From assembly GCF_017348835.2 (NCBI RefSeq), contig NZ_CP071375.1: 64,000 nt of DNA, one strand, 5' to 3'. Position 1 is the first letter of the stretch; each line of letters starts with the position of its first letter. Shown here in pieces: positions 42,328 through 45,300 of the stretch. Source of the stretch: Escherichia coli (GTDB lineage: Bacteria > Pseudomonadota > Gammaproteobacteria > Enterobacterales > Enterobacteriaceae). The position numbers were made by a program.

Positions 42328-45300
42328 TGATAATCCTCCCGCCAGAAGAATAAAACATAGCCCGGTATACAAGTGTATACCGGGCTTTTTTGATCAAAAT
42401 TCCATTTTCACCGTGAATTGCACTTCACGCGGATCGCCAATCTGATTCCCCAGATTATTTGTGGCGATGGAAGAGGTGTAATACGTTTTATCAAACAGGT
42501 TTTTGACGTTTAATTGCAGTGTGACCGGATACTGCAATTTCATTTTGTATGCGGCGAAGGCATCGGCAACGAAATAGCCTGGCAGATAATAGTCAGCCCC
42601 ATTGGTTGCCGAACGACGGCTTACGCCATGTCCACCACCGCCAAACGTCAGTGTGTTATTGCCTGGCATGTTATGAATGTCATAGGTCAGGAATAGCGAA
42701 CCGGTATGACGAGGAACATTCGGCAATGGTTTCCCTGCATAATCAGGATCTTCCAGAACCTTAGCATCGGTATAGCCGTAGCTGGCAATGATATTAATGT
42801 TTTCAGTTAATGCTCCCGCAAGGTCGACTTCTACCCCTCTTGAACGAACGCGGCCTGCCGTTTTGGCGATGGTTTCATCACCAATACTTTCGGTATACAA
42901 CACGTTACGTTTATGGATATCAAACAGCGCAATATCTGCGGTTATACCATCGAACAGCTCGAATTTTGCCCCGACTTCGTAAGCATTAGATGATTCCGGT
43001 GGAAGATCTCCGATGTAGCTGGCAATTGACGATTGCGGCATAAATGTTTGCGAATAATTAGCAAATAAGGATACCGATGGCGTCAGTTTGTAGACTAACC
43101 CCAGTTTGGGCGTCCATTGTTCATCGCGGCTGTCAGTATTGACATTAAAAGGACGGCCTTTACCCGCATACTGCGTGTAATACTGATAGCGGATCCCGGC
43201 GACGGCAATCCAGTTATCGGTCAGATAGAGCGCGTCCTGTGCATAAGCTGAGTAGCTCTCCTGTTTGATCGTCTGATCACTGTCCGACGCCGAAACCGTT
43301 GTGCATTTGCTGGTATTGCCATAAACGGGGTTGTAGATATTGAAATCTTTAGCGTTTTTACAGCGAATCATATCTGTGCGCAGAAGATCATAATATTCAT
43401 ATGACACCCCACCCAGAATCTCATTATAGAACCCAGCAATATCAACATTCCCTTGCAGATCCGCACGAGTAGAATGCATACGCTGGGTAGATCCCTGAGT
43501 TGCATCAACACGCCGTGTCAGCGTTCCTGTCGTTGCATCATACGCGGTAACGCGAGCCTGATTGTCGCTGTATTTATCCTGGCTGTAGCTGTAATCAAAG
43601 CGCGCTGTCCACTGGCTATTGAGATGATATTCTGCGTTGAGTTGCGCCAGATCGGACTGACCATCTGTAATATTAAACGGTTCGTCAAAACGTATTTTTC
43701 GATCAACGTTTACGGGCTGTTTCGTCGTAAGGTCGAAAATCGTTCCACGATCGAACGGAGTTTTATAGTCCCGATGGGAATAGAGCATGGTTACTGTTGC
43801 ATTATCACCAAACCAGGTGAGTGACGGGGCAATAAATGTACTGCGCTCTTTACCGAAGTTTCGCCAGTAATCTTCATCCTGCACTTCCCCCGTCAGGCGG
43901 TATGTCAGCTGAGTGCCTTCAATGGGACCTGTGATATCAAGTTGCCCAGTGCCTCCGCCAAAACTGGAGGACGTGGCTGAGACAGAACCATGGAATGTTT
44001 TTTCCGGGCGCTTGGTCACGACGTTAATCAATCCACCAGGATCGAGAATGCCATACAGCGTGGAGGCCGGACCTTTTAGCACTTCCACACGTTCTGTGGC
44101 GGCGTTGAAACTGCGAGGAAGTACAGTTCGCAGACCGTTGGTCATGATGGAGCCATCCCGGTTAGCACCAAACCCACGACGTACAAAGGCGTCCTGAGTT
44201 CCGCCTAATGTATTGGTCTGTACCACGTTACTGACGTTATAAAGCGCTTCATCCAGCGTCGTTGCATTCTGATTTTCCAGAACCTGATCGCTAACCGTAT
44301 TGACCACCTGCGGAATATCCAGCATCGGCATATCGGTTAATGTCGCCGTGGAAGTGCTCAGAGGTTGATAACCATCGGTCGCCTCAGTTGCGGTATTTGC
44401 ATCCGCTGTAACAGTGATTGTTTCGCCATCTTTGGTCGTTGCAGTGTCGGTTGCATGAATCATTGGTGCTGCAAAGAGCAGTGAAAAGAGCGCCCGACCT
44501 TTGATTCCTGAGAATGAAGGTGTGAACTTAGCCATTTAGTCTGTTATCCCAAAAACTCACGGATTGTCGTGAGTGAAAATTGTTTCTTGTTGCTCACTAA
44601 GCACTATCCGTTTGTTATTTCACCATCGGATATGTAATTGAGAATCATTCAACCATGCGCTGATGTAGTAGTAAATGAGAAATAACAAAAAATTGCTACA
44701 TGTGTTTTTATGAGAGGTTAATGCAATTCAATTGATGGTAATTTATTAATATTTAATGGTTTTATTTTTATCTTTAAAAATATTTCACCTATTATTTACC
44801 TTGTTTTTGTATGGCTTTTAACTTCTTGACTACTACATTTTGTGGCGTCAAACTCTCAAAGGAGAATGAGTTTTATTTTTGTTTGTCTTTGATTAAGTTG
44901 GCGTACACGTGGCACATAACGCAAAAGGGCAGGGGCTGATCCTCGACAATGTTTCTGCCGGGTATCACAAGAAAATCATTGTTGATGGTGTTTCTTTCTC
45001 CGTTCCCACAGAAAAAATGACCGTTCTGGTTGGGGCAAACGGCTGTGGAAAGTCGACGTTGCTCAGCACCATTGCACGTATCTTGCAACCCATGGGCGGC
45101 TCAATATTGCTGGATGGTAAAGCGATTCACGAGCAACCAACGAAAGCGTTATCCCGTAGACTTGGGATCTTGCCGCAGTCGCCATTATTGCCGGAGGGCT
45201 TAATCGTTTATGAACTGGTGTCGCGTGGGCGTTTTCCCTGGCAGAATTTCATTCGTCAATGGAGCGACGCCGACGAGCAGGCGGTAGAAGAGGCTCTGAA

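Follow-up and report, generated by a model that had tools for sequence, protein, structure and literature searches.

The divergent fitA-fitB control region of Escherichia coli: two weak Fur-like sites, predicted back-to-back promoters and a putatively structured fitA leader

The fit locus and its closest described relatives

Close described counterparts to the region analyzed here, besides the published fit promoter itself, are the divergent regions of the enterobactin system (fepA-fes, fepB-entC and fepDGC-entS), in which, as in the fit system, a receptor or transport gene is read divergently from an operon; Fur boxes overlap both core promoters of these regions, and each has several ChIP peaks of heights similar to those at fit. 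The two systems differ in strength, the ent/fep boxes scoring 12–18 bits in leave-one-out tests versus 9.8 and 12.4 bits for those of fit, and ent/fep derepression being 20- to 600-fold versus about 6–7-fold for fit in CFT073. Unlike the enterobactin regions, fit is also under a second repressor specific to the locus, FitR, and its spacer is longer and fixed in length, with ~160–185 bp between the -35 elements. The fit system, an accessory iron-uptake system induced both by iron limitation and in urine, was reportedly described by Ouyang and Isaacson in 2006. FitR resembles the RpiR/MurR-family repressors MurR, HexR and AlsR, which act on locus-specific operators: it has the same HTH_6 plus SIS architecture and is an autorepressor encoded in its own operon (PMC2593036). 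Unlike these repressors, it is not tied to a sugar-phosphate pathway, and homologs at or below 51% identity were not found in iron loci; the 51% homolog lies beside an RND efflux operon, and a 45% homolog lies on a contig too short to show its context.

The locus examined here lies in a 64,000-nucleotide stretch of E. coli DNA (the window), and its features are as follows.

42394–44535, minus strand: fitA, TonB-dependent siderophore receptor (TIGR01783, 372 bits; PGAP annotation)
44536–44908, no strand: fitA-fitB intergenic region, the bidirectional fit promoter/operator region (ORFs, PGAP annotation, GC content, and published reporter fusions and FitR EMSA on the fragment, PMC2593036)
44909–45718, plus strand: fitB, ABC ATPase, first gene of fitBCDE-fitR (ORFs, profile match, PGAP annotation)
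48699–49586, plus strand: fitR, RpiR-family repressor with HTH_6 and SIS domains (domain match; PMC2593036)

The locus is that of the fit system already published for E. coli (fitA / fitBCDE-fitR): fitA is divergent from fitBCDE, the RpiR-type FitR comes last, and the whole is inserted between parE and ygiN (parE / fitA <> fitBCDE-fitR / ygiN); it matched E. coli PE164 at 100%. As fitA (minus strand) starts with an ATG at 44535 and fitB with a GTG at 44909 in both the ORFs and the PGAP annotation, the gap is exactly 44536–44908; the 373-bp AT-rich divergent gap between receptor and ABC operon described in the original prediction thus holds to the base, with 30.6% GC compared to 50.5% for the whole window. 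The GTG of fitB aligns with an ATG in other genera. The 7.2-kb island between parE and ygiN was present in 1870 of 5426 complete genomes, and the carriers (about one third of complete E. coli genomes) include O157:H7, ST131, CFT073 and EAEC 042. The region shows no essential difference from the published bidirectional fit promoter (Ouyang & Isaacson 2008; Banerjee et al. 2020; Gao et al. 2023), which is the same locus with identical gene order, and fit belongs both to CFT073's direct Fur regulon as c3770-c3775 (Banerjee et al. 2020) and to the Fur pan-regulon (Gao et al. 2023). Our intergenic sequence is almost identical to that of strain 042 and has 27 differences from that of CFT073 over the 373 positions, all of them outside the conserved blocks described below; the center of the region is hypervariable even within E. 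coli.

Fur occupancy and two Fur-like sites

Fur binding in vivo, dependence of expression on iron and Fur, and repression and binding by FitR have all been demonstrated in published work. Promoter-lacZ fusions in both directions, which make the divergent gap a bidirectional promoter as had been proposed, are iron-repressed for fitA and fitB alike, and loss of fur raised fitA 23-fold, loss of both fur and fitR 52-fold (PMC2593036). In RNA from a CFT073 fur mutant c3775 was up 7.0-fold and c3774 5.7-fold (PMC7157518). FitR represses both directions and shifts the intergenic DNA in an EMSA, independently of Fur (PMC2593036), which bears out the extra control by a co-encoded RpiR-type regulator suggested in the original prediction; the same study left the precise places at which Fur and FitR bind to be determined. 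In Fur ChIP-seq of CFT073 the peak heights were 2720 (c3775) and 2545 (c3774), similar to those of fepA (3285) and cirA (3050) (PMC7157518 Tables S1, S5A), and the summits, transferred to the window, fall at 44646 and 44848 (Table S5A). ChIP-exo peaks at fit have been reported for CFT073, 042 and Sakai, in iron-replete conditions only (PMC10164565). We mapped those of CFT073 and 042 onto the window by pairwise alignment; in Sakai the peaks are 211 bp apart, as they are in the other two strains.

44645–44657, no strand: Fur ChIP-exo peaks CFT073 P124 and 042 P111, iron-replete (PMC10164565 Dataset 2, coordinates transferred)
44855–44870, no strand: range of the Fur ChIP-exo peaks beside fitB, CFT073 P123 at 44855–44867 and 042 P109 at 44858–44870 (PMC10164565 Dataset 2)
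44750–44762, no strand: central, weaker Fur-bound spot, P110, in strain 042 only (PMC10164565 Dataset 2, mapped)
43041–43053, no strand: intragenic Fur ChIP-exo peak in fitA, CFT073 P125, with 042 P112 at the same offset (PMC10164565 Dataset 2)

The intragenic peak was positioned by the linear CFT073-to-window offset, the aligned CFT073 segment having ended short of it, and scores 5.4 bits with our weight matrix. The central spot of 042 adjoins both a position-conserved central motif (44739–44753) and a GTTTTATTTTT repeat (D2, 44759–44769 = 44870–44880) that it has in common with the fitB-side site. The proposal that iron and Fur act here through a weak box is therefore correct and was already known, Fur occupancy and iron repression of fit having been published; the joint absence of a matrix hit and of iron-dependent expression was to have overturned it, and it stands because the iron and Fur dependence is documented. 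That earlier publication had been overlooked, as had a second, stronger Fur-like site beside fitB. The Fur-like sites, both of them candidate operators, are the following.

44634–44652, plus strand: S1, Fur-box-like 19-mer GTAATTGAGAATCATTCAA, fitA-proximal Fur operator candidate (12/19, 9.8 bits, conservation, ChIP-seq summit)
44640–44650, inside S1: GAGAATCATTC stretch
44862–44880, minus strand: S4, Fur-box-like 19-mer AAAAATAAAACTCATTCTC, fitB-proximal Fur operator candidate (13/19, 12.4 bits, shuffle p = 0.019)
44862–44869, inside S4: GAGAATGA stretch

S1 agrees with the consensus GATAATGATAATCATTATC at 12 of 19 positions, the very count of the original prediction, although the coordinates given there (44632–44650) were off by 2 bp. 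The match is as weak as had been supposed: 10% of the dinucleotide shuffles of the region reach its 9.8 bits (p ~0.10), 14 sites elsewhere in the window score at least as high, and a site of this kind occurs in 29% of other AT-rich tiles of 373 bp, so that as a bare consensus match S1 is not above chance. S4 fares somewhat better (12.4 bits, p ~0.02), with five comparable hits in the window. The weight matrix was built from 16 K-12 Fur-regulated promoters, whose known sites have a leave-one-out median of 14.6 bits (range 6.1–20.5). Neither 19-mer is a strong Fur box, such scores being common in AT-rich DNA, and the matrix is not decisive because it cannot by itself separate S1 and S4 from an AT-rich background; the scan that had been proposed as a check thus does not alone validate S1.

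It is the conservation of S1 and the published ChIP data, rather than the consensus score, that show it to be real. In 40 intergenic regions of fit loci, drawn from at least 12 genera and with a mean column identity of 58%, S1 and S4 are the top hits in nearly all, S1 as an unchanged 19-mer, and only 3.1% of 19-mers are equally conserved (S1, mean conservation 0.99, rank 2 of 355; S4, 0.94, rank 11 of 355). The S4 variants of other species are often closer to the consensus, reaching 16.8 bits. The two best matrix hits in the region are, moreover, exactly the sites beside the mapped Fur peaks. These observations bear on the reading that the match arose by chance in horizontally acquired DNA whose high AT content reflects H-NS-type silencing, a reading that would fit a matrix score that is not significant alone, a strain-variable island with a control region of 30.6% GC, and a central part that is hypervariable. 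However, four discrete blocks are near-perfectly conserved in the 40 regions, and strong iron-dependent Fur ChIP peaks sit at conserved blocks; as the sole explanation chance is refuted, and we regard it as extremely improbable, while H-NS could still bind the variable center.

A second reading is that S1 is conserved as a core promoter (-10 element and start) and/or as the operator of another regulator, with the Fur contact beside it at 44645–44657 and the Fur-consensus resemblance of its left half (GTAATTGAG) incidental. The non-consensus bases of S1 are as invariant as its consensus bases, so that Fur cannot account for all of the constraint, to which the -10 element, the start site or some other factor may contribute; TGTAAT, besides, presumably resembles the half-site of the RpiR-family repressor HexR. 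The centers of the ChIP-exo peaks, at 44651 and 44861–44864, lie 8–10 bp inward of the 19-mer centers, toward the -10 elements, the fitA-side window being 8 bp to the right of the S1 center, and the exact Fur contacts may differ from the matrix-defined S1 and S4 windows. Yet the peak positions are probably uncertain by at least this much, the ChIP-seq summit at 44646 is inside S1, and its core GAGAATCATT is the best Fur-like stretch in the fitA-side half of the region. The same core occurs in the aerobactin iucA P1 operator, which we take to be GATAATGAGAATCATTATT; in S1 the flanks (GTAATT... and ...CAA) depart from the consensus. The core-promoter and Fur readings overlap physically and are for that reason hard to separate; we consider it unlikely that the former accounts for S1 in place of Fur.

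Predicted promoters, the twin motif and FitR

Because a generic sigma-70 scan of the region gave no promoter at threshold, the promoters were placed from conservation.

44647–44675, minus strand: predicted PfitA, -35 TTTACT (44675–44670), 17-nt spacer, TG (44655–44654), -10 TTGAAT (44652–44647), start ~44638–44641 (sequence)
44826–44854, plus strand: predicted PfitB, -35 TTGACT (44826–44831), 17-nt spacer, -10 CAAACT (44849–44854), start ~44860–44862 (conservation and spacing only)

Each matches 8 of 12 consensus positions, and their -35 and -10 elements, 17-nt spacing and TG are invariant or nearly so in the 40 regions; the PfitB -10 reads CAWRAT in other genera. Both Fur sites would overlap these promoters, which were predicted rather than mapped, S1 spanning -12 to about +7 of PfitA and S4 about +1 to +20 of PfitB. 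Our inferences are the exact -35, -10 and start assignments, the view that the two 19-mers are themselves the operators, and the cooperative geometry described below.

The gap very probably consists of two back-to-back sigma-70 promoters under iron-dependent Fur control, with FitR as an added layer. The leftward promoter would drive fitA and the rightward one fitBCDE-fitR. With plentiful iron, Fe2+-Fur would bind two main places, one per promoter: the fitA-side site (44634–44652) would overlap the predicted extended -10 and start of PfitA, and the fitB-side site (44862–44880) would cover the predicted PfitB start and the first 20 nt transcribed from it, so that bound Fur would block RNA polymerase; when iron is scarce Fur would leave and both units would be transcribed. 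The three Fur peak centers are spaced by 105 and 108 bp, about ten helical turns each, a spacing that would suit cooperative Fur binding on one face of the DNA. FitR adds a separate 2- to 5-fold autorepression from somewhere on the 373-bp fragment. Pinning the fit operators has little general value, because Fur repression of siderophore receptors is textbook knowledge and the occupancy is published; of practical value is the base-level map (two Fur sites, promoter elements, twin motif and structured leader), which could serve work on fit regulation or an iron reporter.

A mini-ORF at 44866–44892, which has what looks like an AAGGAG Shine-Dalgarno sequence, is not retained as a leader peptide: the G at 44861 is confined to Escherichia and a small number of relatives, the ORF ranges in length from 4 to over 8 codons, and the ATG would be ~5 nt from the predicted start site.

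An inverted pair of conserved blocks occupies the -35 and spacer of both promoters.

44663–44677, plus strand: B2, invariant ATGTAGTAGTAAAyG, reading TTTACTACTACAT toward fitA, at the -35 and spacer (inverted repeat I4; conservation)
44825–44838, plus strand: B3, invariant CTTGACTACTACAT, inverted counterpart of B2 at the -35 and spacer on the fitB side (inverted repeat I4; conservation)

The distance between the two copies of the invariant 13-bp TTKACTACTACAT takes only the values 161–163 or 183–185 bp, about two helical turns apart, and the intervening sequence varies freely. The twin ACTACTACA motif was rejected as the site of a global regulator, there being two occurrences outside fit regions in the 783 kb of sequence examined and no counterpart in 16 other Fur promoters.

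That the twin TTKACTACTACAT elements are FitR operators, with FitR rather than Fur the main architect of the layout, would agree with the binding of FitR to the fragment and its repression of both promoters (PMC2593036), and with the same placement of the motif in both promoters as an inverted pair; TGTAGT is also about ten times more frequent in fit intergenic regions than expected (111 copies vs 11), though the two inherited copies make up 80 of the 111. Against this, all four invariant blocks, the TTKACTACTACAT pair included, are intact in three loci (Erwinia sp. JUb26, Pantoea coffeiphila and Affinibrenneria) that have a PepSY-domain gene instead of fitR, an arrangement that must be old since identity between the PepSY proteins of different lineages is only 59%. 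No block was specific to FitR-containing loci, and comparison with the FitR-less loci for a FitR operator gave a difference at the level of 1 nt only, the sole k-mer specific to FitR-containing loci being AAAGAGAATGA at the left edge of block B4. We therefore think it improbable that the twin elements are the FitR operators and FitR the main architect of the layout.

Midway between the two -35 motifs, 23 of the 40 regions carry YAANNNNTTGAWW at a constant offset, versus 3.5% of shuffles, as a candidate IHF site (core consensus WATCAANNNNTTR); the allele of the window, however, has TTAAT for TTGAT. This central motif directly adjoins the 042 Fur ChIP-exo peak.

The predicted fitA leader RNA

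In the fit literature that we searched we found no report of operator bases, start sites, a footprint, the twin ACTACTACAT motif or leader structure, and the predicted base-level promoter assignments, the TTKACTACTACAT pair with its two-valued spacing and the putatively structured fitA leader appear not to have been published elsewhere. The predicted leader has three conserved elements.

44605–44632, minus strand: HP1, 5'-proximal stem-loop, TATCCG...CGGATA, in the predicted fitA leader (RNAalifold)
44587–44595, minus strand: conserved unpaired leader motif between HP1 and HP2, GGGCAAUGA in most genera and GAGCAACAA in E. coli (conservation)
44556–44573, minus strand: HP2, hairpin CUCACG-N6-CGUGAG with U5 after it, ~20 nt ahead of the fitA AUG (position-conserved)

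For HP1, RNAalifold finds four pairs, each of them supported by compensatory changes; the share of paired cells is 85% versus 25–41% in slid controls, there are 38 double-change cells, and none of 500 shuffles reaches it. A search of the region against Rfam 15 gave a best hit of 24.6 bits (threshold 65), all hits being to unrelated eukaryotic or sRNA families. Control of the leader by RyhB was not supported, the duplex energies of its pairing with the conserved leader motif being no better than those of shuffles (mean z = -0.3); the only hint of it is that in CFT073 the 7.0-fold rise of c3775 became 4.0-fold on added ryhB deletion, a change below the authors' own 2-fold cut-off (PMC7157518).

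Based on the FitR-independent twin TTKACTACTACAT, its two-valued spacing and the structured fitA leader with its GGGCAAUGA motif, we tentatively raise a third layer of control, which is possible though we would not favor it: a DNA-binding factor or looped repression complex, together with post-transcriptional control of the receptor. HP2 forms at the same place from unrelated sequences in nearly all genera, with modest individual z-scores. A generic terminator scan found no minus-strand terminator at threshold and did not call HP2, whose stem in E. coli is 6 bp long and directly precedes U5; the U-run is interrupted in Enterobacter and Erwinia.

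The fit locus and its divergent control region

The locus corresponds to fit (fitA, fitBCDE and fitR), the system studied by Ouyang and Isaacson. Its genes encode a TonB-dependent siderophore receptor, an ABC transporter (one ATPase, two FecCD-type permeases and a substrate-binding protein) and an RpiR-family regulator (HTH_6 plus SIS). The 7.2-kb fit island (42394-49586; 100% identity to E. coli PE164) is carried by 1870 of 5426 complete E. coli genomes (34%), once on a plasmid, and fits tightly into the 47-bp gap that separates the neighbouring genes parE and ygiN in K-12 (flanks at 42331-42393 and 49587-49629 of the window). 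The fitA-fitB intergenic region (44536-44908, 373 bp) is bounded by the fitA ATG at 44535 (minus strand) and the fitB GTG at 44909, and has 30.6% GC vs 50.5% for the whole window. Its centre (44680-44824) is hypervariable even among E. coli: 44500-44950 shows only 90-95% identity in 1073 genomes, while identity over the whole island is 95% or more in every one, and the differences in CFT073 are concentrated at 44714-44824.

In a 2008 study (PMC2593036) the intergenic region was cloned both ways, iron repressed both directions, and purified FitR shifted a 347-bp intergenic fragment, which bears out the original prediction that the RpiR-type regulator adds a further layer of control; the exact Fur and FitR sites were left to be identified. 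The region is an ordinary bidirectional promoter for siderophore uptake, repressed by Fur and co-repressed locally; it is already characterised genetically and by ChIP, with its Fur control already in the literature. The ent/fep divergent promoters are its closest analogues, from which fit differs in its weaker boxes, smaller dynamic range and extra RpiR-type repressor.

Fur matches and mapped Fur binding

An AT-rich gap with a 12-of-19 match to the 19-bp Fur consensus had been described by eye, and this was accurate for the length, composition and count; the match, GTAATTGAGAATCATTCAA, lies at 44634-44652, 2 bp from the 44632-44650 originally given. The weight-matrix scan that had been proposed for this admittedly weak site was run with a matrix trained on 16 K-12 Fur-regulated promoter regions, in which it retrieves boxes of 11-17 consensus matches out of 19 (e.g., fhuF, ryhB, sodA, fecI and cirA); in leave-one-out scoring these sites gave between 6.1 and 20.5 bits (median 14.6).

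Fur-matrix matches in the intergenic region
44634-44652: S1, fitA side; 9.8 bits, reached by 10% of shuffles
44862-44880, minus strand: S4, fitB side; 12.4 bits, reached by 1.9% of shuffles

The scan was not decisive: there are 14 comparable matches (≥9.8 bits) across the window, at least one of them in 29% of other AT-rich tiles, leaving Fur control possible but unproven by sequence, in line with the original caution.

Banerjee et al. (PMC7157518) reported CFT073 ChIP-seq summits at 3607979 and 3607777, with respective heights of 2720 and 2545, compared with 3285 for fepA and 3050 for cirA, and RNA increases of 7.0-fold and 5.7-fold (c3775 and c3774) in a fur mutant. Gao et al. 2023 (PMC10164565) found fit ChIP-exo peaks in iron-replete conditions only, at 3607758-70 and 3607968-80 in CFT073, with three intergenic peaks in strain 042 and two, 211 bp apart, in O157:H7 Sakai. 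The corresponding regions of CFT073 and 042 were retrieved for alignment with the window; the 042 allele is almost the same as the window's, and CFT073 differs at 27 positions, none within the conserved blocks B1-B4 described below.

Published Fur peaks transferred to the window by alignment
44646 and 44848: ChIP-seq summits (CFT073)
44645-44657: ChIP-exo, fitA side (CFT073 and 042)
44750-44762: ChIP-exo, centre (042 only)
44855-44867 (CFT073) and 44858-44870 (042): ChIP-exo, fitB side

The mapped peaks therefore place the predicted site under a strong, iron-dependent Fur peak. The observation is confirmed and its interpretation as iron regulation supported. The ChIP-exo centres (44651, 44756 and 44864) are separated by 105 and 108 bp, about ten helical turns each, and lie 8-10 bp inward of the centres of the matrix-defined 19-mers. 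An exact 11-nt direct repeat, GTTTTATTTTT (44759-44769 and 44870-44880), joins the central Fur-bound spot of 042 to the fitB-side Fur site. A ChIP-exo peak inside fitA (PMC10164565), with equal offsets in CFT073 and 042, falls at 43041-43053 when placed by linear coordinate offset rather than alignment, ~1.6 kb from the fitA-side peak, where the matrix gives 5.4 bits only.

Conserved blocks, predicted promoters and the twin motif

A genome scan with FitA identified 39 loci (in Escherichia, Enterobacter, Lelliottia, Silvania, Huaxiibacter, Citrobacter, Kosakonia, Kluyvera, Yokenella, Erwinia, Pantoea and Affinibrenneria), all with fitA divergent from fitBCDE. Mean column identity among 40 intergenic regions aligned with MAFFT was 58%, yet four blocks were essentially invariant.

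Invariant blocks
44633-44652: B1, TGTAATTGAGAATCATTCAA, the originally predicted site
44664-44675: B2, TGTAGTAGTAAA
44825-44837: B3, CTTGACTACTACA
44862-44878: B4, GAGAATGA..TTATTT

The two best Fur-matrix matches rank 2nd and 11th in conservation among 355 19-mers (3.1% equally conserved); the S1 and S4 positions are the top matches in almost every species, and S4 variants often shift toward consensus, up to 16.8 bits.

Promoters predicted from conservation and spacing only
Minus strand: PfitA; -35 TTTACT 44675-44670, 17 nt, TG 44655-44654, -10 TTGAAT 44652-44647
Plus strand: PfitB; -35 TTGACT 44826-44831, 17 nt, -10 CAAACT 44849-44854

PfitA is predicted to be an extended -10 promoter, with every key base invariant; the -10 of PfitB reads CAAAAT, CATGAT or CAAGAT in other genera. 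A generic scan of the region called no promoter at its threshold. S1 would cover about -12 to +7 of PfitA and S4 about +1 to +20 of PfitB, and Fur at either position would be compatible with repression by occlusion.

The same ACTACAT directly follows each predicted -35 hexamer; together these form an inverted pair, TTKACTACTACAT (repeat I4), without variation across the 40 regions. The 9-mer core of this twin motif occurs only twice more in the 783 kb of sequence scanned, and the motif has no counterpart among the 16 Fur promoters. It is not FitR-specific, B1-B4 being all intact in three loci without fitR. A PepSY-domain membrane protein (~380 aa) directly follows fitE, in the place of fitR, in Erwinia sp. 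JUb26, Pantoea coffeiphila and Affinibrenneria (loci L042, 1027-2166; L052; L044, 852-2012), and in the 39 loci this gene and fitR are mutually exclusive. Since PepSY proteins from different lineages share 59% identity, the alternative arrangement is old; FoxB-type siderophore reductases have a protein of this type. Neither comparison of loci with and without FitR nor distant FitR homologs located the FitR operator.

The twin motifs are 161-163 bp apart in the Escherichia/Enterobacter clade vs 183-185 bp in the remaining loci, which is two helical turns more and is kept to 1-2 bp across almost unconstrained sequence. Exactly midway, 23 of the 40 regions have an IHF-core-like match, which adjoins the central Fur peak of 042. 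The residual interest of the region lies in the FitR-independent twin motif, its two-valued spacing and the structure of the predicted fitA leader.

The fitA leader and minor observations

The predicted fitA leader (minus strand) is ~105 nt from start to AUG.

Leader features
44605-44632, minus strand: 5' stem-loop with clear covariation
GGGCAAUGA: conserved unpaired motif in most genera
44556-44573, minus strand: second hairpin, then a U-run and a GGGAWAACAGA ribosome-binding region

In the 5' stem-loop 85% of cells are paired vs 25-41% in slid controls, with 38 double-change cells, a pairing reached by none of 500 shuffles. The second hairpin is kept at the same place across genera with unrelated sequences. 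A search of the region against Rfam gave no family match, and RyhB pairing with the leader was not significant; the sole experimental hint of a RyhB effect is that c3775 RNA was 1.7-fold lower on ryhB deletion in a fur background, under the authors' cut-off (PMC7157518). In Enterobacter leaders (L017-L024, L036, L039, L045-L049) the first 7 nt, AUUACAU, can pair with AUGUAAU before the start codon, which would close the whole leader; this pairing is absent in E. coli.

In the fitB start region (44881-44911 of the window, compared with loci L028-L052), Escherichia and Enterobacter have a GTG start without a recognisable Shine-Dalgarno sequence; other genera have ATG, a GCAGGAG Shine-Dalgarno and a ~50 nt longer leader with a GC-rich hairpin. 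A tiny ORF (44866-44892, ATG...TGA, MSFIFVCL) varies from 4 to >8 codons, and its ATG is invariant across genera; since it lies within the fitB-side Fur site, what is conserved is probably the DNA.

Elsewhere in the window, an open frame at 3-3977 (minus strand; >1325 aa, 30-35% GC) is cut by the window edge; its TcdB_N, TcdA/TcdB glycosyltransferase and DXD domains mark it as a LifA/Efa1/ToxB-like large toxin (lymphostatin type). Several Fur-matrix matches of ≥9.8 bits fall within this AT-rich gene (95-3563), one of them, at 212, of ≥14.5 bits, and these are probably compositional.
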